From Deltaproteobacteria bacterium (GTDB lineage Bacteria; Desulfobacterota; Binatia; UBA12015): 64,000 bases of DNA. Under the pieces are notes generated by a model, which saw only the letters and a list, made by a program, of their open reading frames with translations, did no database searches and had not been told where the DNA came from. The stretch is taken from NCBI GenBank assembly GCA_046583355.1, contig JAYGCM010000057.1, positions 32,006 to 96,005 on the forward strand, given 5' to 3'. Made by a program: the position numbers and the translations under genes. The first letter of the stretch is position 1, and each line of letters opens with the position of its first letter. Below are positions 2,953-60,835 of the stretch, in pieces.

Positions 2953-3940
2953 GGTGGCGCGTATCCACGGAATTCCTGCTGCGGGCAGGCGGCAGCGTCC
3001 GGGCGCCACCGGCACGCGGCAGCGGAGCGCCGGCCGCCGCCAGCGCCTGCCGCCACAGCCGCCGACCAGCCTGCTGGCCGGCCTGAGCGACCTCGGTTGG
3101 GATGTCAGCGCGGCAGCTTTCGATCGTCTGGCGCCGGCCGTCCTGCGCGAACTCGACGCCGAAATCGCCGAGCGCATCGGCGAGGCACCGCTCGCCACCA
3201 ACGATTACGGCTTCGACCCCTGGGGCTTCGAGGGCGATACGGCCCGGCGCTGCTTTCTCCTCTGCGGCCTGCTCTATCGCTACTACTTCCGGGTCCAGAC
3301 CCGCGGCATCGAGAACCTACCCGCCGGGCGTGTCCTGCTGATCGGCAACCACGCCGGCCAGATCGCGCTCGACGCGGCCATGATCGCCACCGCCGGATTG
3401 CTCGAAGCCCACCCGCCACGCATCATCCGCGGAATGGGCGAGTTCTGGCTCCCGCGCCTGCCCTGGATCAATATCCTCATGGTGCGCTTCGGCAGTGTCG
3501 TCGGCACGCGCAAGAATTGCGTCGATCTGCTCGAGCATGGCGAGGCCGTCATCGCCTTCCCCGAGGGCGTACGCGGCATGAATAAGGCCTTCGTCCAACG
3601 CTACCAATTGCAGGAATTCGGCCTCGGCTTCCTGCGCCTGGCGCTCCAAACAGGCACACCGATTGTCCCGGTGGCTACCGTTGGCTCGGAAGAACAGGTG
3701 CCCTCATTGGGCGATTTCAAGCCACTCGCCAACCTCCTGGGTATGCCGGCCTTCCCCCTGGTACTGGCGCCCCTGCCTCTGCCGGTGCGCTACCATGTCG
3801 AATTCGGCGAGCCGATGATCTTCGAGGGCGACCCCAACGACGAAGACCATATCATCCGCGCCAAGGTCGACACCGTAAAGGCGCGCCTCAACGCGATGCT
3901 CCGCGACGGTCTCGCGCGCCGCACCAGCATCTTCGGCTGA
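2921..3940 (+). CDS. lysophospholipid (1-acyl-sn-glycerol-3-phosphate) acyltransferase, PlsC family
   Basis: HX4D motif GNHAGQIALD and FPEG motif AFPEGVRG are present. The annotated 5' end is Gly/Arg-rich and overlaps the previous gene. The real start is probably between about 2954 (GTG) and 3065. Confidence 0.75.
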   Translation: MAACANGTPPRVARIHGIPAAGRRQRPGATGTRQRSAGRRQRLPPQPPTSLLAGLSDLGWDVSAAAFDRLAPAVLRELDAEIAERIGEAPLATNDYGFDPWGFEGDTARRCFLLCGLLYRYYFRVQTRGIENLPAGRVLLIGNHAGQIALDAAMIATAGLLEAHPPRIIRGMGEFWLPRLPWINILMVRFGSVVGTRKNCVDLLEHGEAVIAFPEGVRGMNKAFVQRYQLQEFGLGFLRLALQTGTPIVPVATVGSEEQVPSLGDFKPLANLLGMPAFPLVLAPLPLPVRYHVEFGEPMIFEGDPNDEDHIIRAKVDTVKARLNAMLRDGLARRTSIFG

Positions 3941-13316: not shown

Positions 13317-13352
13317 CTAGAGGCCCGGCCGAAAAGCAGGCCGGGCCTCTAG
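13317..13352. terminator. perfect 14-bp-stem palindrome (CTAGAGGCCCGGCC, 8-nt loop, GGCCGGGCCTCTAG) directly after the HEAT gene stop; possible terminator or repeat element
   Basis: The inverted repeat is seen directly in the sequence. No T-tract follows it. The arms share sequence with the promoter-like motif reported at 37146. Confidence 0.4.
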
Positions 13353-13389: not shown

Positions 13390-14424
13390 ATGGAAACCAC
13401 GGAGACCTTGCCGACCGCGCCAACCGAGACCAACGCGGGCCGATTCCACGCCATCGCCGACCGGGTACTGGAAGGTACCGCTCCGACACGAGAGGAAGCA
13501 CACGCCATCCTGGGTGCGCCGGAGCCCGAGTTCGAAGAGCTTCTGGCCGCCGCCCTGCGCATCCGTGAGCGCCGTTGGGGCCGCGGCGTGAAGCTCTGCA
13601 TGCTGCAGAACGCACGCTCGGGACTCTGCCCCGAAGATTGCAGCTATTGCTCGCAATCCAAGGTCTCCAGCGCCGAGATCGACACCTACACGCTGCTCGC
13701 GCGCGGCCGGCTCATCGAGGGTGCCAAACAAGCGCAGCTGCGTGGTGCGCGGCGCTATTGCATGGTGACCAGCGGGCGCGGACCCAGCGACCGCGATATT
13801 GACGAATTCTGCGCCACCACCCGCGCGATCAAAAGCGAATACCCTGACCTGGAGATCTGCGTCTCCCTCGGCCTGATGGACGACGCAAAAGCCGTCAAGC
13901 TCAAGGAGTCCGGGGTCGGCTGGATCAACCACAACCTGAATACCAGCGAGCGCCACCACGACGCGATCTGCAGCACACATACCTACGCCGACCGCGTGGC
14001 AACCGTGCAGGCGGCCCAACGCGCGGGGATGAACACCTGCTGCGGCGGCATCATCGGCATGGGCGAGAACGACGAAGATATCGTCCAGCTCGGCTTCGCG
14101 TTGCGCGAGCTCAAGGTGGACTCTCTGCCGGTGAATTTTCTCCACGCCATCGACGGCACGCCGCTGGAAGGTGAGCCGAAGGTCAGCGCGGGACGCGCCT
14201 TGCGCGCACTCTGCCTGATGCGTTTTCTCAACCCCGATGCAGATATTCGCGCGGCCGGTGGCAGCGAACGCGCGCTCGGCGAGGACGAGCATCTGGCACT
14301 CAATGCCGCCAACTCAATTTTTGTTGCCGGCTACCTCACGACCTCCGGGCGCACTGCCGAAGCGGCGCATCGCATGATCGAAGAGCGCGGCTTCCACGTC
14401 GACGGAACGGAACTGGGCCTCTAG
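13390..14424 (+). CDS. bioB: biotin synthase
   Basis: Radical SAM motif CPEDCSYCSQS, the BioB NHNLNTS motif, the auxiliary-cluster Cys residues, and a C-terminal IRAAGGSE. GGAGG lies 5 nt before the ATG. Confidence 0.85.
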   Translation: METTETLPTAPTETNAGRFHAIADRVLEGTAPTREEAHAILGAPEPEFEELLAAALRIRERRWGRGVKLCMLQNARSGLCPEDCSYCSQSKVSSAEIDTYTLLARGRLIEGAKQAQLRGARRYCMVTSGRGPSDRDIDEFCATTRAIKSEYPDLEICVSLGLMDDAKAVKLKESGVGWINHNLNTSERHHDAICSTHTYADRVATVQAAQRAGMNTCCGGIIGMGENDEDIVQLGFALRELKVDSLPVNFLHAIDGTPLEGEPKVSAGRALRALCLMRFLNPDADIRAAGGSERALGEDEHLALNAANSIFVAGYLTTSGRTAEAAHRMIEERGFHVDGTELGL

Positions 14425-17850: not shown

Positions 17851-18125
17851 TGAGTGACGGAGAGAGGCCAGATGCCTATTATGTCGGGCGCCTGCTCGGC
17901 AAGCTCAAACTCCTCATCGCCACCGACGACGAAGTTCCGATGGATACCAAACTCGACACCCAGGCGATGATCAAGGAGTTCGCGCGCCACCTCTCCGCCC
18001 CGCTAGACGAGCAGGATGTGCCGACCTTGCAAGCACAGCATAACCACCTGCTTGTCGAGCTTGAGGACTTCCCCAACTGCGAGTCGCTGCTGCTTGCGCT
18101 GCCGAACTTCGCGCCCAACCTCTAG
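17850..18125 (+). CDS. hypothetical protein (91 aa), coupled to the TPR gene by a TAATG overlap
   Basis: An in-frame ATG at 17850 overlaps the TAA of the TPR gene. The sequence is MSDGERPDAYYVGRLLGKLKLL... Confidence 0.45.
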   Translation: MSDGERPDAYYVGRLLGKLKLLIATDDEVPMDTKLDTQAMIKEFARHLSAPLDEQDVPTLQAQHNHLLVELEDFPNCESLLLALPNFAPNL

Positions 18126-18142
18126 ACGCCGCCGATTGCGCC

Positions 18143-19243
18143 ATGACGGCTCGCGAACTCAGCCAGCGCGTGCGCGCTGCCATCGGAGAGACAGCGGCAG
18201 ACCCGCAGGCCCCCTTTGCCTTCGACGCACTCGCCGAGGAGATTTTCGCTTTCCAATTTTCTCATTGCGAAATCTATCGTCGTTTTTGTGAGCGACGAGG
18301 TATCCGGCCGGGAGATACCACGACCTGGAAGGAAATCCCGGCGCTGCCCACCAGCGCCTTCAAGGCGCTGGACCTCGCCTGTGGCGATGCCGAGCAGGTT
18401 TTCCTCACCAGCGGGACGACGCAAGGCGAGGAACGGCGGGGCCGCCACCTGATGCCCGATGTCGCACTCTACCGCGAGTCCGCGGTGGCACATTTCCGCC
18501 GCATGGTGCTGCCCGATGGAGCCCGGCCACGCATCGTCGGCCTTCTCGCCGGGCCGGCCGAGACACCCCAATCCTCGCTTATGCAAATGGTCGAATGGCT
18601 CCGCATTGAACTCGGTGACGACGCCCCCGAATACCTGGTCGATGCCGCGGGTTTCAATGCCGCGGCCGCCACTTCTCGCCTGCGCATACTTGCCGCCGAG
18701 GCGCGTCCTCTGTGCCTGATCGGCGTGCGCACGGTCTTTACCGCGCTGCTGGACCACCTCCGCGCCGCCGGAGAAGAGATCGAGTTTCCGGCCGATACCC
18801 GTATCGTCGAGACCGGCGGACCCAAAGGCGGCCGCACCCTCTCCGACAACGGGCTGCGCCGCTCGGCCTGGGACCTGCTCGGCGTACCCGGATATTATTG
18901 CCTCGGCGAATACGGCATGACCGAGCTCTCTTCCCAATATTACGACGATGTCCTGGAGCGCCGCTTTGCCGGCTCCAACGCAAAACGGCGCAAGCTCGCA
19001 CCGCCGTGGCTGCGCTCGGTGGCCGTCGACCCCGAAACCCTCGCCCCGCTACCCGATGGCGAAAAAGGCCTGCTACGACACGTCGACCTCGCCAACGCGC
19101 TCTCCGTGCTGGCCGTACAAACCGAAGACCTCGGCATCGTCACGGGCCCCTACCTCGAATTACACGGCCGCCAACCGGGGGCCGAGCCACGCGGTTGCGC
19201 GCTGGCCCTGGCGCACCTGCTCGAAGGCGAGACACGCGGTTGA
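18143..19243 (+). CDS. LuxE-family acyl-protein synthetase (fatty acid adenylating/transferring enzyme)
   Basis: VFLTSGTTQGEERRGRHL matches the LuxE FxTSGTTG nucleotide-binding motif, in a 366-aa protein. Confidence 0.75.
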   Translation: MTARELSQRVRAAIGETAADPQAPFAFDALAEEIFAFQFSHCEIYRRFCERRGIRPGDTTTWKEIPALPTSAFKALDLACGDAEQVFLTSGTTQGEERRGRHLMPDVALYRESAVAHFRRMVLPDGARPRIVGLLAGPAETPQSSLMQMVEWLRIELGDDAPEYLVDAAGFNAAAATSRLRILAAEARPLCLIGVRTVFTALLDHLRAAGEEIEFPADTRIVETGGPKGGRTLSDNGLRRSAWDLLGVPGYYCLGEYGMTELSSQYYDDVLERRFAGSNAKRRKLAPPWLRSVAVDPETLAPLPDGEKGLLRHVDLANALSVLAVQTEDLGIVTGPYLELHGRQPGAEPRGCALALAHLLEGETRG

Positions 19244-29137: not shown

Positions 29138-30105
29138 CAGCTGCGGTCGTAGGCCGTGATGATTTTCTGCACCAGCGGGTGGCGCACCACATCCCGTTCG
29201 CTGAAGCTGCAGAAGCCGATCCCCTCGACCGAGTGCAGAAGCTCTTGTGCCTCGATCAGGCCGGAGCGTTTACCCGGGCCCAGGTCGATCTGGGTCACAT
29301 CGCCCGTGATGACGGCCTTGGAACCGAAGCCGAGCCGCGTCAGGAACATTTTCATTTGTTCGGGCGTGGTATTCTGCGCTTCGTCGAGCACAACAAAAGC
29401 GTCGTTCAGGGTGCGGCCGCGCATGAAGGCGAGCGGTGCGACCTCGATCGTGCCCCGGTCCATATATTTCTGCGCTCGTGCTGGGTCGACCATATCGTTC
29501 AGGGCGTCGTAGAGAGGCCGCAGATAGGGGTTCACCTTGTCGGCGAGATCGCCGGGCAGGAAGCCGAGCCGCTCGCCGGCCTCGACGGCCGGACGTGCCA
29601 GAACAATGCGCGTGACCTCGTTGGCCGCGAGTGCGGCGACGGCCATCGCCATGGCGAGGTAGGTCTTGCCGGTTCCGGCAGGACCGATTCCGAAGACGAT
29701 ATCTTTCTTGCGGATTGTATCGATATAATATTTCTGCGCGACGGATTTGGGTGCGATCGTGCGATTATGGGCCGAGATGAAAATCGCGTCGAGGAAGATC
29801 TCATGCAGCCGCGCCTTGGAATCCGCCGAGAGAATGCGCACGGCATAGCCGACATCGGAGGCGTAGAGCGGGTAGCCGCGCGCGAGCAAATCCAGCAATT
29901 GCGTAAAGACACGACCCGCCAGTTCGCTTTGCAGATCGTCGCCACGGACCTCGATGGTCGAGCCATGCACGATGGCGCGCACGCCCGTGGCATCTTCGAT
30001 CATTTTCAGATGCTCGTCGTGCTGGCCGAGCAACCCGGTCAGCAAAGTGGGGTCGGGCACCTCGATATGAAGCGACCCGCCGGCCTGCGTTGTAGCTTGT
30101 GTCAT
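29137..30105 (-). CDS. PhoH-like ATPase (YbeZ)
   Basis: Walker A motif [11 protein letters not shown] and PhoH family conservation. It sits in the conserved ybeZ-ybeY arrangement, with start/stop overlaps on both sides. Confidence 0.9.
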
Positions 30106-32726
30106 TCCTTGATCAGATCGTAGACCCGCGCCAGAGCTGCGTCGAGCCCCGATGCATCCTTGCCACCTGCCTGGGCGAAGTCCGGACGACCGCCGCCTTT
30201 GCCACCCACCAGCGGCGCAAGCGCGCCCACCAGCTTGCCGGCATGCACGCGCCCGGTCAGATCCTTGGTCACAGCGGCAAGCAAAAGAACCTTGCCCTTG
30301 TCTTCGCCACCCAGAACAATCACGCCGGAGCCCAGACGGTCGCGCAATTTGTCGGCCAAATCGCGCATGACCTTGGCATTGCCGCCTTCGACCTTCTGCG
30401 CCAGCACCTGAATGCCGTCGATCTCGCGCACTTCATCGAGTAGGTCGCGCGAGGTGCCGGCAGCCAGCTTGGCCTGTGCCGCCTCGAGCTGGCTTGCCAG
30501 TTTCTTGTTATGCGCGAGCAGCTTCTCGACCCGCGTGCCGGCTTCTTTTTCGTCGGCGCGCAACAGCAGAGCGATCCCCGCGAGCGCCGCCTCACCCACC
30601 CGCACCGCTGCCAGCGCCCCTATGCCGGTGAGAGCCTCGATGCGGCGCACACCAGCACCCACGGCCGACTCGGCGCGAATCTTGAAGAGACCGATATCGC
30701 CCGTGCGACTCACATGCGTGCCACCGCAAAGCTCGACGGAGAACTCGCCCATCCGCAGAACGCGGACGCGGTCGCCGTATTTGTCGCCAAAGAAAGCCAG
30801 TGCGCCGGCAGCGGTGGCATCGTCGATCGCCATCTCGGTCGCCGTGACCTCGGCATTCTCACGAATTCGGTCGTTGACCCAATCCTCGATCTGCACGAGC
30901 ATTCCGGCATCGACACGGCCGTCGTTGGTGAAGTCGAAACGCAGGCGCTCGGCCGTGACCAGCGAACCGGCCTGATGCACATCGGCACCGAGGAAGGTGC
31001 GCAGGGCCGCATGCAGAATATGGGTCGCGGAATGGTTGAGGCGGGTTGCCTCACGGCGCGCCGGATCGACCACGAAGGTCGCGGCCGCACCGGCCGATAT
31101 GGACCCGCGCACGACCCGAGCGCGGTGCACGATGAGATCGGCGCGCGGCTTCTGGGTGTCGAGGACCTCGACCAGACTGCCATCGGCAAGCTCGATTATG
31201 CCGCCGTCGCCGGCCTGACCACCCGACTCGCCGTAGAAAGGAGTCTGCGCGGCGACCAACTCTACTTCTTCGCCCTCGCGCGCCTCGGCAATAGCCTCGC
31301 CGTCGCGCGCGAGCGCCGAGACCGTAGACTCGGCGCGCTCGTCCTCGTAGCCGACGAAGGCCGATGTCGCGTCGCCGAAGCCGCCGCCGGTCACGGTGGC
31401 AAAACGAGCCGCGTCGCGACCGCGCGCGCGCTGCGCGCCCATGGCCGCATCGAAGCCTGCGCGGTCGACCGCCAGGCCATCACCGCGCAGGATGTCTTCG
31501 GTGAGGTCGAAGGGAAAGCCGTAGGTATCGTAGAGCTTGAAGGCGACCGCGCCGGTGAGCGTCTTCTCGCCCCGAGTCGCCAGCTTCGCCTGCTCGTCCT
31601 GCAAGAGCCCGAGGCCCTTTTCCAGGGTCTCGCCGAAGCGTTCTTCTTCGCCCGTCACGGTTTGGCGGATTCGGTCGCGGTGCTCTTCGAGTTCGGGGTA
31701 GGCCGAGCCGAGAATATCGACCGTACGGTCCGTGATCTTGCCGAGAAAGGGTCCGTCAAGGCCGAGAAGATGGGCTTGGCGCGCGGCGCGGCGCAGCAGC
31801 CGACGCAACACATAGCCGCGGCCGTCGTTGGACGGCAGGATGCCGTCGGCGATCATCACGGCGACCGCACGCGCGTGGTCGGCGATCACGCGGAAGGCGA
31901 CATCGGTCGCCTCGAAGCTGCCTTTGTAGGCCGTGCCCGAGAGTTCTTCCGCCACCGTGATCAGGCCGCGCAGCTGGTCACCATCGTAATTGCCATTGCC
32001 GCCTTGCAAGACCGAAACCACACGCTCGAGGCCCAGCCCGGTATCGACATGCTTCTGCGCAAGGTCGCCCAGGCTGCCATCGGCACGCCGATCGTTCTGG
32101 ATGAAGACCAGATTCCAGAGTTCCATGTAGCGCGCGCAGCCGGAGTTCACGCCGCAGACGTGGCCGGCCGGCTGGTCACAGGTGCCCGGTCCGCGGTCAA
32201 TATGAATCTCGGAGCAAGGACCGCAGGGGCCCGTCTCGCCCATCTCCCAGAAATTGTCTTTCGCGCCACAACGCAGGACGCGCTCGGGGTGAATATCGGT
32301 CACCTTCGGCCAAAGCGCGGCGGCTTCGTCATCGGTCTCAAAGACGGTCGCGTAGAGTTTGTCCTTGGGCAGCTCCCAGACTCCGGTGAGAAGCTCCCAG
32401 GCCCACTCGATCGCTTCGGGTTTGTAATAGTCGCCGAACGACCAATTGCCGAGCATCTCGAAGAAAGTCTGGTGGTAGACGTCCCGGCCGACGTCGTCGA
32501 GATCGTTATGCTTGCCCGAGATCCGCAGGCATTTCTGCGAGTTCGCCACCCGCGGCGACACCGGCGTCTCGGTGCCGAGGAATACGTTCTTGAACGGAAC
32601 CATGCCGGCATTGGTGAAGAGCAACGAGGGGTCGCTCTGCGGCACGATCCGATCGCTCGGCACGATCAGGTGGTCGCGCGCGGCAAAGAAATCAAGGAAG
32701 GATTGTCGGACCTCAGTTCCGGTCAT
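30102..32726 (-). CDS. alaS: alanine--tRNA ligase
   Basis: 874 aa with the FTNAGMVPFKNVFLG class-II motif region, the editing domain and a C-terminal DHHA1-like region. Confidence 0.97.
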   Translation of the reverse strand: MTGTEVRQSFLDFFAARDHLIVPSDRIVPQSDPSLLFTNAGMVPFKNVFLGTETPVSPRVANSQKCLRISGKHNDLDDVGRDVYHQTFFEMLGNWSFGDYYKPEAIEWAWELLTGVWELPKDKLYATVFETDDEAAALWPKVTDIHPERVLRCGAKDNFWEMGETGPCGPCSEIHIDRGPGTCDQPAGHVCGVNSGCARYMELWNLVFIQNDRRADGSLGDLAQKHVDTGLGLERVVSVLQGGNGNYDGDQLRGLITVAEELSGTAYKGSFEATDVAFRVIADHARAVAVMIADGILPSNDGRGYVLRRLLRRAARQAHLLGLDGPFLGKITDRTVDILGSAYPELEEHRDRIRQTVTGEEERFGETLEKGLGLLQDEQAKLATRGEKTLTGAVAFKLYDTYGFPFDLTEDILRGDGLAVDRAGFDAAMGAQRARGRDAARFATVTGGGFGDATSAFVGYEDERAESTVSALARDGEAIAEAREGEEVELVAAQTPFYGESGGQAGDGGIIELADGSLVEVLDTQKPRADLIVHRARVVRGSISAGAAATFVVDPARREATRLNHSATHILHAALRTFLGADVHQAGSLVTAERLRFDFTNDGRVDAGMLVQIEDWVNDRIRENAEVTATEMAIDDATAAGALAFFGDKYGDRVRVLRMGEFSVELCGGTHVSRTGDIGLFKIRAESAVGAGVRRIEALTGIGALAAVRVGEAALAGIALLLRADEKEAGTRVEKLLAHNKKLASQLEAAQAKLAAGTSRDLLDEVREIDGIQVLAQKVEGGNAKVMRDLADKLRDRLGSGVIVLGGEDKGKVLLLAAVTKDLTGRVHAGKLVGALAPLVGGKGGGRPDFAQAGGKDASGLDAALARVYDLIKE

Positions 32727-32760
32727 TGCGGACCTCTAGAGGTCAGACGCGAAAGTGCAA
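32727..32760 (-). promoter_or_regulatory. promoter-like element TTGCAC-N16-TAGAGG-N6-ATG (leaderless alaS start)
   Basis: The minus strand reads TTGCAC tttcgcgtctgacctc TAGAGG tccgca ATG. The spacer and geometry match the elements at 37146 and 38491. Confidence 0.45.
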
Positions 32761-32798
32761 TGACGCAGGAGAGGCGCCGGCGGCGCGGCGGCGATGCC

Positions 32799-33809
32799 TT
32801 ATTCACGCAGAATCACGTCGAGAGTGAAGCGAAGCTTCTTGAGAATCCGGCCGAGAAAATTCCCGTGGATATTCCGGCGCAGACGGATCAGGGTCTTGCG
32901 CTCCAGCGAGTAGCGCAGGGGCTGGCGCCGCTTGGCCGGCTTCTCGCCGCTGCTGGCGGCCTCATCGAGGTCGGCCAGGATCTCGCTGCGCGGATAGCCG
33001 AGGATTTCCAGATCGGCGTCTTCGAGTCGCTGGAGAATCTGCATCACGACATCGAGCGTCTCGGGTTTCGAGGCGATCTCCACGGCCCAGCGCTTGATCG
33101 AAGAGGTAACCGGCCGGTCGTGCTGGCCGACGCCGATCGGGTCGCCCAGCCCTTGGAACTCGTCGGACTTTTCCTTGTAATTGATCGCGCCGGCCTCGAA
33201 GGGGAGAGCAAGGTGATCGCAAATGGCACGGAAGCCAGCCTCTGGATCCTCAACGAATTCCTCGTAGCGCACATGTGCGAAGGGAACCGGCTTGTCGCGC
33301 AGCATTTTCGCCAGCGCCGGTACGTAGCGCTCCAAGATGGGATTATGCTCCATCGCCACTTCATAATCGCCATCAAAAAAAGAGTTGACGTAGGAAGAGA
33401 GGATGGCAAGCGGGTGGCGCGTCAGAATAACGTAGCCGGCCTTGGGATAGAGCCGCGACAAAAAAGGCAGCACCAGAGAATAGGCTGGTGTTTTGTCGAG
33501 GAAATATTTCTTGCCCGGTGTCGTCTCGAGCATCTGCCCGTAGAGAGAATCGGTGCAAGCCCGCAGAGCGTCGAGGTAGCCTTCCTCGCCGCGCGGCAGA
33601 TCCGAAACCACCTCATGGATGGCCTGCTGCACGTTGAAAGGGTCGTAGGGCGCCTTCTGCACGCTGCCGAAATAGCCGAGGTGGGCCAGCGGCGTAATCA
33701 GGTGCGGCTCGGCGCGGCTGGCGACCTCGGAATGGGCGCTCAGAATGCGCGCAAGCAATGTGGTGCCGGAACGGGGGGCTCCAACGAGGAAAATCAGGCG
33801 GTCCTGCAC
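32799..33809 (-). CDS. sulfotransferase family protein
   Basis: 5'-PSB motif PRSGTTLL and 3'-PB region ILTRHPLAILSS. Starts with GTG. Confidence 0.75.
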   Translation of the reverse strand: MQDRLIFLVGAPRSGTTLLARILSAHSEVASRAEPHLITPLAHLGYFGSVQKAPYDPFNVQQAIHEVVSDLPRGEEGYLDALRACTDSLYGQMLETTPGKKYFLDKTPAYSLVLPFLSRLYPKAGYVILTRHPLAILSSYVNSFFDGDYEVAMEHNPILERYVPALAKMLRDKPVPFAHVRYEEFVEDPEAGFRAICDHLALPFEAGAINYKEKSDEFQGLGDPIGVGQHDRPVTSSIKRWAVEIASKPETLDVVMQILQRLEDADLEILGYPRSEILADLDEAASSGEKPAKRRQPLRYSLERKTLIRLRRNIHGNFLGRILKKLRFTLDVILRE

Positions 33810-33976
33810 CCAACGAGTTTAGCCAAACCGCAGGCTCTGGGCTAGTCAGTATCGCGCGACCAACGCCAGCGCCGCGGGGATTGCCGCCTGCTTGGCGCGA
33901 CCAGTGACCGGGGCGCGGAAGCCGCGGCCTGCACTGCCTCATTGACACGAGGGCATCGGCGACAGGAAGAAGGGGA

Positions 33977-35998
33977 ATGGCGGGGCGAAAGCGAAAGAGT
34001 AAGTCGCGCAGGTCGAGCGCAGCCACGCCGCCGGCAATGCCGCTGCCGCGCTGGATGCCCCTTGCCTGCCTCGCCTTACTCCTCGTGCTCGCGTTGCCCG
34101 CGTGGCGCGCTCCCGCCAGGCTGGTGATCACGGGCGGCACCCCGCCTGCGGCCGAGGCGCGCGCCTTGACTCTGCTCGCCCAGGCCAGCGCGCGCCTGCT
34201 CTCGCCACTGGCCCCGGTGCCGGCACAGCCCGGCTTTCCCGCGGAAACCACAACACCCGCCGACGCGCCGGGATTGCTCGCCGGATTGCTGGCGCTGCCA
34301 GCCGTGGCCGCGGGCGAGCCGATTCTCGCCTGGAACCTGACCACCTTGCTGCTTGCCTGGCTCGCCGCCCTCGCCATGCTGGTCCTCGTGCATGCCGCCA
34401 CCGGCAGCCCGGTGGCGGCATTTGTGGCAGCCATCGCCTGGGCCATCCCGCCGGATTCCCTCGCAGCACCGCTGGCCGTGCTGCTGCGGGTCACCCCGCT
34501 GCTGCCCATGGCCGTGCTCGCCGGCGCCCGCCTGGCCGCCCGGCCGCGCCGCGTCGAGGTGGTCGCCGCAGGCGGCACCATGATTCTCATCGCCGCAGCG
34601 CCACCCGCTCTCGCGCTGGCCGCATTCTGCGTGGCCGGCCTGAGTGCCGGATTGGCGGGACGCCAAGACCGCCACGCACCGCTGCGGCTTGTCCTCATAG
34701 CCAGCCTCGCGGCAATGACCTGGATCTTGGCCGGCCATGGTCCCAGCTTCGCGCCGGGCGAGTTGCCCTTCTTCTATGGAGCCCTTCCCCTGCGGAGCTT
34801 TCTGCCCGGCGCCAGCAGCTTCCCCGGCGGCGCTTTGCTGCTCCTAGCCCTGGTCGGTGCCTTCTACCGGCGCGGCGCCGTCCGCCCCCGCGGCGGCCAC
34901 GATCCACGGACGCACCTCGCCGTTTTGATTGTCTTGATCGTGCCGGCACTCAGCGACTCGCTGGCTCTGCCCGACGGTGGCACCCTGCGGCTTCCTCTTG
35001 GCTGGCTGCGTGTGGCAGCGCCCGAGGCCGCCGCGATGCTCTCGGGACTGCGCCTACTGCTGCCCTTCGCCCTGGTCCTGCTCGCCGGCTACGGCACCGC
35101 CGCTCTCGCACGCGCCATGGCACCCGGTGCGCCGCGCAATATCCTGCTTGGCATCCTGGTCGGTCTGCTCCTCCTTGAAAACCTCCATCCGTCTCTCACC
35201 CAGGTCTCCTTCGGCCGCAGCAACCCCCGCGACGCTCTGCGGCTTACGCCGCCGGCCGAGGAAGCCCTGCTACTGCGCGGGGCTGCACCCGGGGCGCTTG
35301 TCGATCTGCCCGGCGGCGTCTACGACCCCGGCGCGCATCGCCTGCGCGCCGCCGCCTGGCACCTGCGCGCAACACCCGAGGGTCTCGCTCGGCCTGCGCA
35401 CGCGGCTGCCGCGCTGGCAGGTCTGCTCGCCGCACCGACGGAGAGTGCCCGCGCCGAGGCATTGGCCGCGCTCGGTGTCGGCAACCTCCTGGTGCATAAA
35501 CATGATTTCGCGCCCGACGAGTTCGCCGGGCTGCTGCGCGCACTGGCCCGCAGCGGTGGCGGTGGCGGGCGCCTGCGCACGCTCGGCGAGAGCCCGGCAC
35601 ACCTCCTGCTCGGGCTCACGGGCCAGTCCAGCACGTCGGAATCCTTGGATGCCTTGGAGTCCAACCTCCCGACCGAAACACGCCTGCGGCTACGCGGCCC
35701 GCAAGACCTCATCGTCTTCGAGCTCCACGCCGGTGGCAGCCAGAACTTCCGCCACCCGGAGCCCGAAAAGAGAACCCGGCTCACGATCCGCTTCTTCGAT
35801 GCCCATGGCCACCTCGTCAGCACCGAAACCGCGCGCGCGCTACTGCCGCTGGTAGTCGGGCGTGGCGGACGCGCCTATGTCGCCTTGCAAGTGAATCTGC
35901 CGGAGACGCCAGGCCACCACACGGCCACGCTTGCGCCAAGCAACGACCCGGCACTCACCCTCGCGATCCAACCAGTCGATATACAACAACTAGATTGA
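33977..35998 (+). CDS. large polytopic membrane protein (about 12 TM helices plus a C-terminal soluble domain); possible GT-C glycosyltransferase or polymerase
   Basis: 673 aa, Ala/Leu-rich, many hydrophobic helices, very high GC3. The overlapping ORFs on both strands are spurious. The function is guessed from context only. Confidence 0.5.
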   Translation: MAGRKRKSKSRRSSAATPPAMPLPRWMPLACLALLLVLALPAWRAPARLVITGGTPPAAEARALTLLAQASARLLSPLAPVPAQPGFPAETTTPADAPGLLAGLLALPAVAAGEPILAWNLTTLLLAWLAALAMLVLVHAATGSPVAAFVAAIAWAIPPDSLAAPLAVLLRVTPLLPMAVLAGARLAARPRRVEVVAAGGTMILIAAAPPALALAAFCVAGLSAGLAGRQDRHAPLRLVLIASLAAMTWILAGHGPSFAPGELPFFYGALPLRSFLPGASSFPGGALLLLALVGAFYRRGAVRPRGGHDPRTHLAVLIVLIVPALSDSLALPDGGTLRLPLGWLRVAAPEAAAMLSGLRLLLPFALVLLAGYGTAALARAMAPGAPRNILLGILVGLLLLENLHPSLTQVSFGRSNPRDALRLTPPAEEALLLRGAAPGALVDLPGGVYDPGAHRLRAAAWHLRATPEGLARPAHAAAALAGLLAAPTESARAEALAALGVGNLLVHKHDFAPDEFAGLLRALARSGGGGGRLRTLGESPAHLLLGLTGQSSTSESLDALESNLPTETRLRLRGPQDLIVFELHAGGSQNFRHPEPEKRTRLTIRFFDAHGHLVSTETARALLPLVVGRGGRAYVALQVNLPETPGHHTATLAPSNDPALTLAIQPVDIQQLD

Positions 35999-36089
35999 CG
36001 ATAGGCGATCAATGCCTGCGCTACAAAAGGCCCCGCGCGACGAAGCACCGTGCCTGCGGACGATCCTGCGCACGAAACACCATGCGGGT

Positions 36090-37145
36090 TCAGCCTGCGG
36101 GCTGCGCTGCGGCGCCTGCCTGCAAGGCGGCCTCGACCTCGGCGAAAACCTCGGCAACGCCGATCTCTGTCATTGCTGCGGCGCCGCCTGTGGCCGCGGC
36201 GCGCAAAACGCGATGGTCGCGCCCATAAGGGCGGTAGATTGCCGGATCCTTCGGGCCGAAGAGAGCCACGCAACGCACACCCTTTGCGGCCGCCAAATGC
36301 ATCGGTCCGGTATCGGCCGAGACAAAGACTGCCGCGCTTTCAATCAAGGCGGCCAGATCGAGCAGCGAGGTCGGCTGCGGACCAAGCACAGCAGCACCCT
36401 TGGCGGCGCGCAGGACTTCGCGGGCCAGACCTTCCTCGCCCGGCCCCCAAGTGACCAGCACGCGGCACTCCGCCTCGGCCTCGATGCGCGCGGCGAGGGC
36501 GCCGAAACGCTCGGCGGGCCAACGCTTGTCAGCGCCCTTATCGCTGGTGCCGGGGTGCAGGACGACAAAACGCCCTTGGTCACACCCGGAAGCCTCGCGG
36601 CAGGCTGCCGCGCGCGCCACGGCCGCGGCCGAATGCGGCAGGATATATTCACGCTCCTGCGAGTCGATCCCAAGCGGTCCGAGCAAAGAGCAGAATTTGT
36701 CGACCCGATGCGGCGACAAGGGCGGCGGGACGACGGTCTCGGTGGCAAAAAAACGGCTACCCTCGAGCGAATGCCCTTGCGCAAAAGCGATGCGCCGCGA
36801 CGCGCCCGAGAAGGCGGCATGAAATGCGCCCTTGAGGTTGCCTTGAAAATCGAGCGTCACATCCGGCGCACCCGCACGGATCTCGGCGGCGTAGGCACGA
36901 AACTCGCGGCGCAGCGTACCCCACGCGCGCGGGCCGGCGCGCAGCAACTCGCGGAAACGACAGCGCTCGAAGACATATACATGGTCGATACAGGGGTGCC
37001 CAATCAGGAGTTCCGCAGCGCGGTCTTCTACGACGAACGAGATCCTCGCCTCCGGCCGTGCCCGGCGCAGCAGCGTCAGGGCGGGCAGCGTATTGATCAC
37101 ATCCCCGATGGCGCTCAGGCGGATCAGCAGGAAACGATCGGGCAC
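36090..37145 (-). CDS. glycosyltransferase family 9 (ADP-heptose:LPS heptosyltransferase-like)
   Basis: N-terminal FLLIRLSAIGDVINTLPAL motif. The start is a GTG at 37145. Confidence 0.85.
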   Translation of the reverse strand: MPDRFLLIRLSAIGDVINTLPALTLLRRARPEARISFVVEDRAAELLIGHPCIDHVYVFERCRFRELLRAGPRAWGTLRREFRAYAAEIRAGAPDVTLDFQGNLKGAFHAAFSGASRRIAFAQGHSLEGSRFFATETVVPPPLSPHRVDKFCSLLGPLGIDSQEREYILPHSAAAVARAAACREASGCDQGRFVVLHPGTSDKGADKRWPAERFGALAARIEAEAECRVLVTWGPGEEGLAREVLRAAKGAAVLGPQPTSLLDLAALIESAAVFVSADTGPMHLAAAKGVRCVALFGPKDPAIYRPYGRDHRVLRAAATGGAAAMTEIGVAEVFAEVEAALQAGAAAQPAG

Positions 37146-37179
37146 GAGGCTTTCCTAGAGGTCCGGCCGAAAAGTGCAA
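37146..37179 (-). promoter_or_regulatory. promoter-like element TTGCAC-N16-TAGGAA-N6-GTG (leaderless start of the GT9 gene)
   Basis: The minus strand reads TTGCAC ttttcggccggacctc TAGGAA agcctc GTG. Confidence 0.45.
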
Positions 37180-37325
37180 CGAAGCACAAAACCGCGGGGT
37201 CCAACCGGCGCAGGAACCCGACCGAGAGCACAACGCCTGGAGGCCCGAGGAAACGCGGCCGCTTCCGGGTTGCGGCCCGCGCTGATACGCTACCCACGAA
37301 GCTGCGGTTCGACTGCGGCGCGACG

Positions 37326-38414
37326 ATGCCAGGAGCGCCGACCTTGAAAGCCCAGATCGACAGCCCGCATTTCGCCTCGCTCGACGGACTCCGCGGAGCG
37401 GCGGCCCTCATCGTGGTCTTCACGCATTGTTGTGGGGCCATCGCGCGGACACCGGAGATGGACTTCTGGATCTACCAAACGCCGCTGCGCATTCTCGCGG
37501 CCCCGGCAGGCGCGGTGCAGGTCTTCTTCGCGCTCAGCGGCTGGGTGCTGGCCTATTCGCTCTCGCGCCGCAGCCGACCGAGCGATACGGCACGCTATTA
37601 CCTGCGTCGCGTGCTGCGCATCCATCCGCCCTATATCGCCGCCGTACTGCTGGCCTGGGGCCTGAGCTTCCTCTATGTGGCCCTGCCCGATGCCGTCGGA
37701 TTGAACGGCTGGTTCAAGTCCAACCTCAAGGTTCACCTCTTGCCCGAGCAGGTAGCCATGGCCCTGCGCTTTCCCGGCTCAGCCAGCGGCCAACTGCCGA
37801 TCGGCTGGTCGCTGGCCGTCGAGATGATCTTCTCGTTTCTGATGCCGATCTTCTGCCTCGTTGCCACGCGGCTGCATTGGGCCGTGTTGGTGCCGGTGCT
37901 TGTCTATTCCTTCTCGAGCTCAAGCGAGTTCCCGGTGCTGCGTTGGTCTTTCGATTTCATTTTCGGAATGACGCTCTTCCTGGAACGCGAGCGCATCGCG
38001 GCCTTGGCGCGGCGCGTGCCGTCCTGGGGCCACGCCCTCTTCTTTGCCCTGACACTGGCCCTCTTTACGTGGCCAACCCAGATCTTCAAATCACCGCCGG
38101 AAATCCTGCGTGTCGCCATCGGCTCGGTCTTCTTCGTCGCCTCCGTGCTCTATATCCCTTGGGTCAGGCGGTTCTTTGCCACCAAGCCGATGACCGAATT
38201 GGGGCGGATCTCCTACAGCCTCTATCTCGTCCACTTCCCGATCCTGCTGGTGCTGGCGCCGCATCTCGTAGTGCCGGGCTGGCCCTGGCTGAGTCTCCTG
38301 ACAGTGCTTGTCGGTGTCGTCACCACCAGCCTGATCGCCGGCGATCTGGCCTGGCGGGCCGTCGAGCGGCCCTCCATGCACCTCGGCCGCTGGCTAGCGA
38401 AACGAATTCCTTGA
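37326..38414 (+). CDS. acyltransferase family 3 (OafA-like membrane O-acyltransferase)
   Basis: LDGLRGAAALIVVFTHC N-terminal signature and 10 TM helices. The 800-aa ORF starting at 36012 is an antisense artefact of the GT9 gene. Confidence 0.8.
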   Translation: MPGAPTLKAQIDSPHFASLDGLRGAAALIVVFTHCCGAIARTPEMDFWIYQTPLRILAAPAGAVQVFFALSGWVLAYSLSRRSRPSDTARYYLRRVLRIHPPYIAAVLLAWGLSFLYVALPDAVGLNGWFKSNLKVHLLPEQVAMALRFPGSASGQLPIGWSLAVEMIFSFLMPIFCLVATRLHWAVLVPVLVYSFSSSSEFPVLRWSFDFIFGMTLFLERERIAALARRVPSWGHALFFALTLALFTWPTQIFKSPPEILRVAIGSVFFVASVLYIPWVRRFFATKPMTELGRISYSLYLVHFPILLVLAPHLVVPGWPWLSLLTVLVGVVTTSLIAGDLAWRAVERPSMHLGRWLAKRIP

Positions 38415-38490
38415 AGCCTCCGGGTCCCGCACACCTCTCCCGCGCCGCCACCTCTCACTCAATTTGAGCCGCCTGGCCGCAGCCCGGATG

Positions 38491-38524
38491 TTGCACTTTT
38501 CTGCCCGGCCTCTAGAAGTGGCCC
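38491..38524 (+). promoter_or_regulatory. promoter-like element TTGCAC-N16-TAGAAG-N6-ATG (leaderless start)
   Basis: The plus strand reads TTGCAC ttttctgcccggcctc TAGAAG tggccc ATG. Confidence 0.45.
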
Positions 38525-38998
38525 ATGGTACGCAGGGACTTCCTTCAATCAGCATCCTCACTCGGGCTCGGGGCCGCCTTGGCCTCTCTCTTCGGCATAG
38601 GCGACGCCGAAGCGATGGCGACGGCAGACAGCAGGGAGGCCCGCCTGCGCGAGGACGACCTGATCTATCTCTCGACCCGCCGCAAAAGCGGCGCTTGGAG
38701 TTCGCAGGCGCCGATCTGGTTCTGGTTCGATGATCAGACGATCTACTTCAGCTGCTCGCCCGAGAGCTGGAAGGCGAAACGCCTGGGCGAAGGCGGCCCT
38801 GTCCGCATTCGCGTCGGCAGCGACGATGGCCCGGAGGTCATCGGCCAGGCCACACGCATCCACGACCTCGGCCTCGTGGACCGTCTCGGCGACGCTTGGT
38901 CCAACAAATACTGGGTTGCCTGGTTGGGCTTCTTTCGCCCCCGCCGCGACCGCATCGAAAGCGGCAAGACCTACGCCTACCAGGTCAAGATCGACTAG
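38525..38998 (+). CDS. twin-arginine (Tat) signal peptide protein with a possible split-barrel flavin-binding (PPOX-like) domain
   Basis: MVRRDFLQSASSLGLGAALA is a Tat signal. The mature part (LIYLSTRRKSG...WFWFDDQTIYFSCS...) resembles pyridoxamine-phosphate-oxidase-like folds. Confidence 0.55.
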   Translation: MVRRDFLQSASSLGLGAALASLFGIGDAEAMATADSREARLREDDLIYLSTRRKSGAWSSQAPIWFWFDDQTIYFSCSPESWKAKRLGEGGPVRIRVGSDDGPEVIGQATRIHDLGLVDRLGDAWSNKYWVAWLGFFRPRRDRIESGKTYAYQVKID

Positions 38999-39004
38999 AA
39001 GTCC

Positions 39005-39032
39005 GGCCGGGAAGCAGCGCTGCTTCCCGGCC
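39005..39032. terminator. bidirectional hairpin GGCCGGGAAGCAGC/GCTGCTTCCCGGCC between convergent genes
   Basis: Perfect 14-bp inverted repeat 6 nt after the TAG of the Tat-protein gene and before the nitroreductase stop. No T-tract follows it. Confidence 0.45.
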
Positions 39033-39049
39033 AGACCGCTCGCGCTGTC

Positions 39050-39709
39050 TCAGCTGCGGTGCGTGCCCCATTGGTTCCAATGCGTCAACTGGCCGGCCGG
39101 AAGGCGCTTGGCCTCCTTGAAATCGTCACCGGTATAATAGGCAACGGGGAAGAGGACGGCTTGGGTCACGTCGGCCGGAAGGCCGAGTAATTCGGCGACC
39201 TTGGCCTCCTCGAAAAGGTGAATCGTCGTCCAGGCCATGCCCAACCCGCGCGCGCGCCCGGCCAGCATGAACGACCAGGCCGCCGGAAGGATCGATCCGT
39301 AGATCGAGGCCTGCGCGGCCAGAGGTCCGGTCTCGACGCGCCCCTCAATGCAAAAGATCACCAATGCCGGCGCCTCCTGCATATGCTCGGCGAGGTAGCT
39401 TGCCGAACTGACGACCCGATCCATCTGGCCGGTGCGCATATCATCGCTGGCGAAGGGGGCCGGCATCGACTCGCGCATGGCGGCATAGCCCGCGAAGCCT
39501 TGGCGGTAGACATCGGCGATGGCCGCCTTCTTGTCGGCATCGGTCACGACGACCACGCTCCAGCCCTGCATATTCGAACCCGTAGGTGCCTGGAAGGCGA
39601 CCTCGAGGCATTCTTCGATCAACTCGGGAGCAACCGGCTTGTTGAAATCCAGGCGTTTGCGCACCGAGCGGGTGGTGCGCAGCATCTTGTCAGCAGAAAT
39701 CGTCGTCAT
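39050..39709 (-). CDS. nitroreductase family protein
   Basis: RRSVRKRLDFNKPV...FQAPTGSNMQGWS matches the FMN nitroreductase fold. Confidence 0.8.
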   Translation of the reverse strand: MTTISADKMLRTTRSVRKRLDFNKPVAPELIEECLEVAFQAPTGSNMQGWSVVVVTDADKKAAIADVYRQGFAGYAAMRESMPAPFASDDMRTGQMDRVVSSASYLAEHMQEAPALVIFCIEGRVETGPLAAQASIYGSILPAAWSFMLAGRARGLGMAWTTIHLFEEAKVAELLGLPADVTQAVLFPVAYYTGDDFKEAKRLPAGQLTHWNQWGTHRS

Positions 39710-59337: not shown

Positions 59338-59446
59338 CAGAGAAGGCCGCCGCGCGGCAACAGGCCAGACGCCCTCTGCTGCACCGCGTACAATCTATTT
59401 GCCCTCCTCATCGACAGAACCCGTCCCGGAAGAATAAACTATCAAG

Positions 59447-60835
59447 ATGAATTGCGAAAGACATAGCTACAAGGAAACGCGATGGCTTCCGTTGACGGGA
59501 GTCCTTGTGCTCGGTCTGCTTGCCGCCGCCTGTGGTGGCGGCTCTGGCGAGGCCAACGACACCAGCGATTGCCCGGAGGCCAGCGCCAAGGCCGACGTTC
59601 TCGGCATCATGGAGTCGGTCTATTTCTGGAACGACGAGCCGCTGCAGATAGAAAAATACCGCACGGTCGAACTGGCGCGCTTCACCGACGATAAAGAATT
59701 GCTCGACCCCCTGCGCTGGATCCCGGACAATTTCGACCGCGGCTTCACCTACATCACCTCGCCCGCGGCCGAGGCGCGGCAGAATGCCGGCCGCACCTTC
59801 AGCTACGGCTTTTTGCTCACGCGGATCGGCGCGAGCGACGAGATCCGCGTTCGCCAGACAATCGAAGGCGGTCCGGTCCACGCCGCCGGCGTACGCCGCG
59901 GCTGGCGTCTCCTCTCCATCGGTGGCCGCAGCATCGCCACCATCGACGCCAGCGACGGCATCAGCGCCGCACTCGGCTACCCCTACTCCGACTCCGGCAC
60001 CACACGCACGATGGAATTCCTCGACCGGGCCGGAGTGCATCGAGGGCCCTTTACGCTCACGGTCAGCGAATTCGATGTCGACCCGGTGCCGCTGGTGCGC
60101 GTCTTCGAGCGCGGCGGCCAAAAAATCGGCTACGTGCTGATGCGCTCCTTCGTCCCGCCCGCTGTCGCCGGCTTCGAGGCCGCAATCCGCGACTTCGACC
60201 GTGAAGGTGTACGACATCTGGTGGTTGACTTTCGCTACAACCTCGGCGGCGCCGTGCCGGTAGCCGAGGCGATCGGCGGCATGCTCGGCGGCGACGCTCT
60301 GGCCGGCGAGACCCTCTATCGGCTCGCCTTCAACAGCGCGAATTCCGGCCGCAACCAAACCGGGGCCTTCGATGCCCGCTACGAGGGCAACACGCTGAGC
60401 TCGGGTGCGTTTGACTCGATCGTCTTCCTGACAAGTTCGCTAACCGCGTCGGCCAGCGAATTGGTGATCCATGCTTTCGCACCCTTTGCCGACCGCATCG
60501 GCACGACTTCCATTGGCAGCCGGACCTACGGCAAACCAGTCGGCCAGATCGCCACCGATTATTGCTCCAACAAGCGCCGTTTACGTATCGTCGCCTTCGA
60601 GGTGCAGAACGCCGCCGGTGGCGGTGGCTATTTTGCCGGATTGCCGGTCGATTGCCCGGCCGCCGATGAGCTCGATACCGACCTCGGCGACCCGAGCGAG
60701 GCTTCGCTCGAAGCCGCCCTGGAATTCCATGCGACGGGACAATGCCCAAGCGCTACGGCTACCGCAGCAGCCGCGACATCTGCGCCGCCGCACCGCTCAC
60801 TCGGGATCACCCACCGCTTTGACGGCATTCTTTGA
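59447..60835 (+). CDS. S41-family peptidase lipoprotein (C-terminal processing protease-like) with a PDZ domain
   Basis: Lipobox LLAAAC. PDZ-like segment IRVRQTIEGGPVHAAGVRRGWRLLSIGG. S41 core VDFRYNLGG and the catalytic-Ser region FLTSSLTASASE. Confidence 0.75.
   Translation: MNCERHSYKETRWLPLTGVLVLGLLAAACGGGSGEANDTSDCPEASAKADVLGIMESVYFWNDEPLQIEKYRTVELARFTDDKELLDPLRWIPDNFDRGFTYITSPAAEARQNAGRTFSYGFLLTRIGASDEIRVRQTIEGGPVHAAGVRRGWRLLSIGGRSIATIDASDGISAALGYPYSDSGTTRTMEFLDRAGVHRGPFTLTVSEFDVDPVPLVRVFERGGQKIGYVLMRSFVPPAVAGFEAAIRDFDREGVRHLVVDFRYNLGGAVPVAEAIGGMLGGDALAGETLYRLAFNSANSGRNQTGAFDARYEGNTLSSGAFDSIVFLTSSLTASASELVIHAFAPFADRIGTTSIGSRTYGKPVGQIATDYCSNKRRLRIVAFEVQNAAGGGGYFAGLPVDCPAADELDTDLGDPSEASLEAALEFHATGQCPSATATAAAATSAPPHRSLGITHRFDGIL

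Follow-up and report, generated by a model that had tools for sequence, protein, structure and literature searches.

The 64-kb stretch of DNA analysed here (the window; contig JAYGCM010000057.1 of assembly GCA_046583355.1) carries three genes that are each preceded by almost the same promoter-like element. The first is alaS, which encodes an alanine-tRNA ligase of 874 aa (30102-32726, - strand; Pfam tRNA-synt_2c, tRNA_SAD and DHHA1). The second starts with GTG and encodes a heptosyltransferase-like protein of glycosyltransferase family 9 (GT9; 351 aa; 36090-37145, - strand; Pfam PF01075), and the third encodes a 157-aa PNPOx-like protein with a twin-arginine (Tat) signal (38525-38998, + strand; twin-arginine motif MVRRDFLQ and a weak PNPOx_N match). 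All three are genuine genes with well-supported starts: position 1 of the tRNA-synt_2c profile aligns at residue 5 of AlaS, the GT9 protein is 100% identical to the NCBI-annotated protein P0121 and has the same length, and the PNPOx-like product, which begins with MVRRDFLQSASSLGLGAALA, is identical to NCBI MFP6664434.1.

Each element comprises a TTGCAC hexamer in the place of a -35 box, a 16-nt spacer, a TAGRRR hexamer in the place of a -10 box, and six further nucleotides before the start codon. In the putative core promoter of alaS (32724-32760, - strand), TTGCAC (32755-32760) is followed by the spacer TTTCGCGTCTGACCTC (32739-32754), TAGAGG (32733-32738), TCCGCA, and the ATG (32724-32726). 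The GT9 counterpart (37143-37179, - strand) consists of TTGCAC (37174-37179), TTTTCGGCCGGACCTC (37158-37173), TAGGAA (37152-37157), AGCCTC, and the GTG (37143-37145), and that of the PNPOx-like gene (38491-38527, + strand) of TTGCAC (38491-38496), TTTTCTGCCCGGCCTC, TAGAAG (38513-38518), TGGCCC, and the ATG (38525-38527). The pattern TTGCAC-N16-TAGRRR has exactly three matches in the window (32733-32760, -; 37152-37179, -; 38491-38518, +), against a chance level of 0.03 in dinucleotide-preserving shuffles, none of 100 of which gave three, and every match lies exactly 6 nt from its start codon. Both the near-identity of the three elements and their fixed distance to ATG or GTG had been reported in a sequence-only reading of the window, and both hold up. 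The three copies fall within 5.8 kb, which by our own calculation has a probability of about 0.025 for three random points in 64 kb. An independent assembly (Logan SRR27277810) is 100% identical to the window over 37100-38560, and thus the elements are not assembly artefacts. Nor are they structured RNAs, since they fold no better than shuffled sequences (z-scores of -1.8, +1.1, and +0.6); searches of the window with Rfam models and for tRNAs gave no matches.

The closest named relatives of the AlaS protein belong to Candidatus Binatia metagenome-assembled genomes (MAGs). We define a window clade of three species, namely that of the window, a second represented by the loci L089, L090, and L091 (AlaS 93.5% identical to that of the window), and a third represented by L001 (91%); four-fold-degenerate sites differ by 0.33-0.41 between these species. 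Increasingly distant loci, ranked by AlaS identity, are L002 (83%), L084-L087 (76%), L088 (72%), and L004-L006 (about 69%). One of the latter, L006 (CAMBZJ010000005.1), is titled 'Klebsiella pneumoniae' in its record and appears to be mislabelled: its GC content is 71%, its AlaS is Binatia-like (68% identity), and its alaS promoter is that of Binatia (TCGAAT-N17-TGcTAGCGT). Two further records, L042 and L051, bear the title 'Bordetella parapertussis' and apparently belong to the same MAG series.

The position of the TAG trinucleotide is kept beyond the window clade. It stands 6-8 nt ahead of the alaS start in eight further Binatia lineages or loci, and every lineage down to about 68% AlaS identity has it at the same site. 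The alaS element reads TTGCAC-N16-TAGCCT-N6-ATG in L091 and L001, TGcTAGATC-N7 in L002, TGcTAGTCT-N6 in L084/L087, TCGAAC-N17-(TGt)TAGCCT-N7 in L088, and TCGAAw-N17-(TGc)TAGCGT-N7/8 in L004/5/6. Likewise, a TAG precedes the start of the PNPOx-like gene by 6-8 nt in three further lineages or loci, as in TTGCAC-N16-TAGAAG-N6 in L091 and TGcTAGGAT-N7 in L084/L087. The orthologous -10 hexamers are usually TAGnnT, often with a preceding TGn (extended -10). By these features, the elements of the distant relatives read as sigma-70 TANNNT -10 boxes, most of them of the extended type, placed in a leaderless register.

This layout is also visible across the genes at large. Among 88 called genes from six Binatia loci, a TA dinucleotide starts at -12 in 16, compared with 1.7 on average and at most 6 at other offsets; called genes were used here, and a spacing histogram based on open reading frames (ORFs) was dropped, because an in-frame TAG at -12 itself delimits an ORF. 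In published work, the signature of leaderless genes is a TA signal some 12 bp ahead of the start codon (PMC3160421), and the peak at -12 matches it. The leaderless layout thus reads as a common property of this Binatia lineage rather than a peculiarity of the three genes, and the earlier suggestion of leaderless or near-leaderless messages is borne out as far as geometry can speak.

Alternatively, the genes might not be leaderless, and TAGRRR would then be a purine-rich, Shine-Dalgarno-like tract in a 5' untranslated region whose promoters lie further upstream; transcripts could, for example, read through from the sulfotransferase gene into alaS or from the acyltransferase gene into the PNPOx-like gene. 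Co-oriented genes do lie upstream of alaS (at 72 nt) and of the PNPOx-like gene (at 110 nt), a distance of 6 nt separates AGAGG from the ATG of alaS and AGGAA from the GTG of GT9 (7 nt for the AGGA core within AGGAA), and the GT9 orthologue of L088 shows a true Shine-Dalgarno layout, AGGAG-N4-ATG. However, AGAAG in the PNPOx copy has no match, the alaS orthologues with TAGCCT, TAGCGT, TAGTCT, or TAGATC lack a purine tract, and the divergent 180-nt intergenic region must hold a promoter, GT9 being the first gene to follow it. A direct check for Shine-Dalgarno sequences returned none for the PNPOx-like gene, GAGG at a spacing of 6 for alaS, and AGGA at a spacing of 7 for GT9, the latter two being weaker and further off than the GGAGG at 4-5 nt that serves the genuinely Shine-Dalgarno-led genes of the window (e.g., those at 13390, 11338, and 27467). 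We consider this alternative very unlikely.

Further genes of the window have leaderless-type promoters, all of them lacking the shared core described below. The sulfotransferase gene has TAAACT-N6-GTG (33807-33821, - strand, start 33809), with TAAACC in L091, L001, L002, and L084. A divergent pair 45 nt apart (1978-2028), with TGgTAGCGG-N6-ATG for a VTT/DedA-like gene (start 1980, - strand) and TAGGAA-N6-ATG for an NAD-epimerase gene (start 2026, + strand; the epimerase Pfam profile begins at residue 4), would represent two leaderless promoters set back to back. A peptidase S41 gene is preceded by TCGACA-N18-TAAACT-N6-ATG (59435-59449, + strand, start 59447) and an acyl-CoA dehydrogenase gene by TGaTAATGT-N8-ATG (start 25288). 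At 18113-18145 (+ strand), a LuxE-like acyl-protein synthetase gene has a further CCTCTAG 17 nt upstream of its ATG (TAGACG-N14-ATG), with neither a Shine-Dalgarno sequence nor TTGCAC; the site may be a short-leader promoter with the same style of -10. Between the sulfotransferase and GT9 genes lies a Shine-Dalgarno-led ORF of 673 aa (AGGAAGAAGGGGA-ATG; 33977-35998, + strand) with no Pfam match; its position is kept in all relatives (645-679 aa), and it is probably part of a cell-envelope gene cluster.

What sets the three elements apart is sequence beyond the two hexamers. Six copies in three species share the invariant columns TTGCACTTT.....C.G.C.TCTAG, and these describe an extended core, TTGCACTTT-N9-C(C/A)TCTAG, that appears specific to the lineage and confined to three promoters within 5.8 kb. 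The copies include the element of the PNPOx-like gene in L089/L091, with the spacer TTTCCCCCCCGGCCTC. The spacer pattern given in the sequence-only reading, TTTTC.GCC.G.CCTC, fits the GT9 and PNPOx copies of the window exactly, and the alaS copy (TTTCGCGTCTGACCTC) departs from the 25-nt pattern TTGCACTTTTCNGCCNGNCCTCTAG at three positions, every one in the spacer. Across species, the claim of a conserved spacer stands for the two ends (TTT and C.TC), which are fixed, and fails for the middle, which drifts. At alaS, TTGCACTTT, C.TCTAG, and the N6 distance are invariant in the three species, and the mid-spacer differs at 3-5 of 9 positions. This drift is approximately neutral: orthologues share 4-6 of the nine positions and paralogues 3-6, where about three are expected at random for a C/G-rich stretch. 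Upstream of the alaS -35 box, the printed sequences of the three species show no similarity evident to the eye, no alignment of that part having been computed.

The other 58 kb of the window have no further copy of the core, nor do those parts of L001 and L091 that do not overlap with it. No other leaderless promoter of the clade has these conserved spacer ends; sister lineages have TGn instead of C.TC. A census of the 19-mer TTTTCGGCCGGACCTCTAG yielded four occurrences in the window, one in L001, and none elsewhere in 1.7 Mb of fetched loci. In searchable public collections, which lack the source MAG, the pattern TTGCACTTTNNNGNCNGNCCTCTAG has no match in 596 Gb of GTDB species representatives and a single one in JGI metagenomes, on the contig L003 of an unrelated organism. 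Around the 25-mer, no transposon-like terminal inverted repeats or target duplications were found, and a k-mer census for other repeated motifs mostly returned GC-rich coding repeats and was uninformative.

The sequence-only reading had further held that the -10 hexamers do not fit sigma-70 and had proposed a dedicated sigma factor or regulator; the comparison with relatives speaks against this. All copies have TTGCAC with its TTG core, the spacer measures 16 nt in all seven copies, inside the usual range of 16-18 nt, and the TA of the -10 hexamer is invariant. The T at -7 is absent from the window copies (TAGAGG, TAGGAA, TAGAAG) and present in the alaS element of L091 and L001 (TAGCCT), in L003 (TAGCTT), and in sister lineages (TAGCGT, TAGTCT, TAGGAT). 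Since the same alaS element reads TAGCCT in both sister species, the TAGAGG of the window is best read as a derived state. Moreover, TTGCAC is the -35 box at mapped RpoD promoters of Cupriavidus thrS, rpmE, and icdA (PMC9045368) and at the BCG hsp60 promoter (PMC1616969). Among the fetched loci, an unrelated bacterium (L070) has TTGCAC-N17-TATACT-N6-ATG, and the unrelated metagenome contig L003 (60.5% GC) shows TTGCAC-N16-TAGCTT-N6-ATG at the start of a hisA-like gene (Pfam alignment from residue 4); L003 was retrieved by a pattern that fixes most of these bases and is therefore not independent evidence for them. On this peat-type contig, the -35 box lies inside a triple direct repeat, TTGCACTTTGCACTTTGCAC (3453-3500, - strand), upstream of the leaderless-type hisA-like gene.

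A dedicated sigma factor thus appears unnecessary and is not supported by these comparisons, and a special sigma factor for an essential gene such as alaS is unlikely. The consensus sequences of other known promoter classes were compared by eye. Sigma-54 promoters follow TGGCAC-N5-TTGCW, with GG at -24 and GC at -12, and extracytoplasmic function (ECF) sigma factors use an AAC-containing -35 and a CGT-containing -10. The elements, which run TTGCAC-TTTTC and then GGCC, TGCC, or CGTC, lack GG at -24, and a conserved TTGC is missing at -12; neither the AAC nor the CGT motif of ECF promoters occurs in any copy, and the consensus sequences of RpoH and of sporulation sigma factors do not fit. The T at -7 is one of the two most important positions of a sigma-70 -10 box. 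Several leaderless-type -10 boxes of the window genome are without it (TAGAGG, TAGGAA twice, TAGAAG, TAGCGG); either the host polymerase attaches less importance to this base, or a good -35 box compensates for its loss.

Nevertheless, the fixed ends of the core invite the thought that an alternative sigma factor or an overlapping transcription factor reads TTGCACTTT-N9-CCTCTAG and joins alaS, GT9, and the Tat-exported protein into a small regulon. A bipartite motif of 9 + 7 invariant nucleotides with fixed spacing and a drifting GC-rich middle resembles the binding site of a sigma factor or activator, the three window hexamers lack T at -7, TTT and CCTC are missing from other leaderless promoters of the same genome, and the unrelated contig L003 has the motif in the same register before its hisA-like gene. 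Yet alaS is an essential gene, the promoters orthologous to its own in sister lineages are ordinary TGnTAGnnT promoters, the alaS element carries a canonical TAGCCT in L091 and L001, and TTGCAC is an ordinary RpoD -35 variant. By inspection, the motif matches no sigma-54, ECF, or RpoH consensus, and L003, found with a pattern that fixes most of its bases, does not count independently. Only three sites were found, clustered within 5.8 kb, whereas the other 58 kb of the window and the newly covered parts of L001 and L091 have none, and the three genes have no evident common function. We therefore regard a regulon of this kind as unlikely.

The derived state of the alaS hexamer is accompanied by a small sequence peculiarity. 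Compared with L091 and L001, TAGCCTG has become TAGAGGT in the window (alaS promoter, 32727-32768, - strand), a change of four adjacent bases that creates a perfect 14-nt palindrome, GACCTCTAGAGGTC, and that looks like a template-switch mutation (quasi-palindrome correction). In addition, an 8-nt inverted repeat, GTCATTGC / GCAATGAC, flanks the promoter and start codon. The E. coli AlaRS regulates its own gene through a palindrome at the promoter; a conserved operator for such autoregulation was considered and rejected here, as neither the palindrome GACCTCTAGAGGTC nor the repeat GTCATTGC / GCAATGAC is conserved in L091 or L001. A possible intrinsic terminator, with its end at the TTTT of the spacer, was likewise rejected, its stems being just 4-5 bp long and not conserved.

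The GT9 promoter suggests how one of the elements changed within the clade. It reads TTGTGCattgTTGGGCttttcggc joined directly to TAGGAAaacctcGTG in L089, L090, and L091, and TTGTGCttcgTTGCACttttcggc, CGGACCTC, and TAGGAAagcctcGTG in succession in the window. Relative to its nearest relative, the window copy thus has 8 additional nucleotides, CGGACCTC (37158-37165), and two substitutions that turn TTGGGC into TTGCAC; the 8 nt are found neither in L089, L090, and L091 nor in the outgroup L002. In L089, L090, and L091, and also in L002 (there TTCCGC-N17-TACGGA-N6-GTG), the usable -35 is an upstream box at N17-18. In the window, this older box (TTGTGC) has been pushed to N26, and TTGCAC takes over at N16. 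The resulting GT9 spacer is identical to the alaS spacer of L001 at 15 of 16 positions, including 8 of the 9 in the mid-spacer, and hence closer to it than the alaS orthologues are to one another. The family consensus looks like a chimera, with a left part, TTGsrCTTTTCGGC, that is ancestral at GT9 and a right part, CCGG.ACCTCT..TAG, that is ancestral at alaS (L005, L088).

Two hairpins of the window also share part of the spacer sequence, as had been noted before for palindromes at 13317 and 39005. The first (13317-13352), between a HEAT-repeat gene and bioB, is the perfect hairpin CTAGAGGCCCGGCC-GAAAAGCA-GGCCGGGCCTCTAG with a 14-bp stem and an 8-nt loop (folding energy -35.2 kcal/mol, z-score -5.2). 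It bears GCCGGGCCTCTAG on both arms, and on the - strand its loop and arm read TGCTTTTCGGCCGGGCCTCTAG, a close match to the promoter spacer. The second (38995-39042; z-score -3.2) separates the PNPOx-like gene from the convergent nitroreductase gene and starts at the TAG stop codon. Only one of its arms carries GCCGGACTTCTAG; a resemblance to the spacer is seen in the reverse complement of its left arm, TTCCCGGCCGGACTTCTAG. The arms match the spacer, with TTTTCGGCCGGGCCTCTAG as an exact match to the pattern. Both hairpins lie at or next to stop codons, begin with CTAG, are GC-rich, and have neither a TTGCAC box nor a T-tract; they may be hairpins of the repetitive extragenic palindromic (REP) type or (factor-dependent) terminators. 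In L091 (4714-4790; L089 is equivalent), CTAGAGGTCCGGG overlaps the stop codon of the acyltransferase gene, and pairing is possible between it and the promoter arm of the PNPOx-like gene, CCCGGCCTCTAG, 38 nt downstream; a potential terminator hairpin would then have the -35 box in its loop. In the window, the CTAGAGGTCCGGG arm has decayed, and the loop region is also 45 nt longer.

REP elements consist of GTAG plus a palindrome. One may ask whether the shared sequence is itself a REP-like dispersed repeat, with the three elements as singleton half-copies of the two hairpins and no role as promoters. When up to three mismatches are allowed, the 19-mer TTTTCGGCCGGACCTCTAG also finds a match in one arm of either strong intergenic hairpin; these hairpins, with a GC-rich stem behind an initial CTAG and a position after stop codons, call REP elements to mind, and in L091 the left arm CTAGAGGTCCGGG stands 38 nt upstream of the promoter arm CCCGGCCTCTAG. 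Every singleton, however, occupies the same register, N16 after TTGCAC and N6 before the start (the three window copies, the alaS copies of L091 and L001, and the orthologous PNPOx copies), has no second arm, and folds no better than shuffled sequence, whereas the hairpins lack the TTGCAC box. Furthermore, the TAG at -12, present in sister lineages, is older than the shared sequence, and the 64 kb contain just two such hairpins, with different stems. A REP-like origin without promoter function is therefore highly improbable. The relation of the hairpins to the promoter spacers is nonetheless real.

The CTAG with which the hairpins begin is rare in the window, as the sequence-only reading had recognised, with 24 occurrences against 204 expected (0.12 of expectation), and TTAA is scarcer still (2 against 58). 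GTAC and ACGT are depleted as well, and GATC and TCGA are over-represented two- to threefold. The relatives likewise avoid CTAG and TTAA, less strongly in the lineage with 76% AlaS identity (15 CTAG and 13 TTAA in 22.6 kb of L084).

We consider it probable that the three elements are leaderless core promoters of the housekeeping type whose sequences have been homogenised by local exchange. Each would be a sigma-70/RpoD core promoter, with TTGCAC as the -35 box, a 16-nt spacer, and a TAG that provides T-12 and A-11. With 6 nt between the end of the -10 hexamer and the start codon, RNA polymerase is predicted to initiate at or within 1-2 nt of the A or G of that codon, and the mRNAs would be leaderless and translated without a Shine-Dalgarno sequence. 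The likeness of the three promoters would stem from short-patch ectopic copying, akin to gene conversion, between neighbouring promoters, and the GT9 copy would be its most recent product, in which the gain of 8 nt together with two substitutions moved the functional -35 from TTGTGC to the new TTGCAC. The sequences, their geometry, the pattern of conservation, and the GT9 indel are matters of observation; from this indel, the near-identity to the alaS spacer of L001, and the chimeric consensus, we infer short-patch ectopic exchange between co-oriented promoters that lie close together.

Several points weigh against this explanation. The transcription start is deduced from geometry alone, and the sigma factor and the copying mechanism are arrived at in a similarly indirect way. 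The three window copies lack T at -7, and L091 keeps both TAGAAG (PNPOx-like gene) and TAGGAA (GT9). The plain sigma-70 model does not account for the invariant TTT after the -35 box and the C.TC before the -10, which would suit a more specific recognition protein. The mid-spacers of alaS and the PNPOx-like gene are identical at 3-5 of 9 positions, barely above the random level of about three, and for this pair shared constraint would explain the data as well as copying does. AGAGG (alaS) and AGGAA (GT9) could act as weak Shine-Dalgarno sequences if upstream promoters also read these genes. A strict scan of 32500-39300 for E. coli-type promoters found none, although it demands a T at -7 and is uninformative here. 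Finally, only about 95 kb of window-clade sequence was examined, and the pattern scans of public genomes and metagenomes brought no further copies from the clade.

Of the known systems, the TA-led leaderless genes of Actinobacteria and Deinococcus-Thermus, with a -10 TANNNT about 12 bp upstream of the start (PMC3160421; Deinococcus deserti, PMC4007540), come close. The window genes resemble them in the TA at -12, the lack of a strong Shine-Dalgarno sequence, the ATG or GTG starts, the GC-rich genome, and the sizeable fraction of genes concerned. They differ in their host, an uncultured Gram-negative-type member of Candidatus Binatia, in a third base that is nearly always G (TAG), and in the frequent lack of the last T, and they are known from sequence alone. 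Streptomyces-type -10 boxes are said, after Strohl's work of 1992, to take the form TAGRRT. The elements also share with high-GC RpoD promoters that have TTGC-type -35 boxes (PMC9045368, PMC1616969) the TTGCAC, a spacer of 16-18 nt, a TAG-initial -10, and, in sister lineages, the TGn; in contrast to these, they fix nine bases (TTGCACTTT) and not just TTG, have C.TC in place of TGn, and, in the three window copies, lack T-7.

With regard to their spread, the elements recall putative mobile promoters, defined by at least 50 aligned nucleotides with at least 80% identity upstream of coding sequences that are not homologous (Matus-Garcia et al. 2012, PMC3488235). Here, too, similar promoters precede non-homologous genes of one genome, the sequence is lineage-specific, and there is evidence of a recent gain at GT9. 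However, the shared block of 25-28 nt is a core promoter with unrelated flanks and falls short of this length, no associated insertion sequence or miniature inverted-repeat transposable element was seen, and the copies are neighbours rather than dispersed. The likeness to REP/REPIN elements concerns the GC-rich, xTAG-initial palindromes after stop codons (13317, 38995), which have an arm in common with the promoter spacer; the promoter copies, by comparison, are non-folding single arms, and a strict start-codon register is not a REP property. A limited full-text search that paired Binatota with leaderless turned up no promoter study of the lineage, although published work may exist.

A more far-reaching reading is that TTGCACTTT-N9-CCTCTAG is a lineage-specific promoter cassette, richer in information than a sigma-70 core promoter and either read by a dedicated sigma factor or activator for leaderless genes, or spreading as a minimal module of 25 nt by templated short-patch copying. 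We find it doubtful. If the core did prove to be a spreading module, genes would be rewired with their leaderless register kept, and the GT9 event would have been caught in the act, having taken place since the split from the species with 93.5% AlaS identity. A regulon signal or a copyable module would be of wider interest; as it stands, the case would be one of an ordinary mechanism with a local twist.

The probable explanation, housekeeping-type promoters homogenised by local exchange, would nevertheless make the locus a small, datable case of promoter turnover, in which extended -10 promoters were replaced by -35-dependent ones and one promoter was re-registered by an 8-nt insertion to become almost identical to that of a neighbouring gene. 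In broader terms, the comparisons suggest, at the level of sequence, that -10 boxes standing 6-7 nt ahead of the start codon commonly drive leaderless transcription in Candidatus Binatia, an uncultured lineage distributed globally in soils and sediments. This feature may be of use for the choice of start codons and for promoter models in Binatia MAGs.

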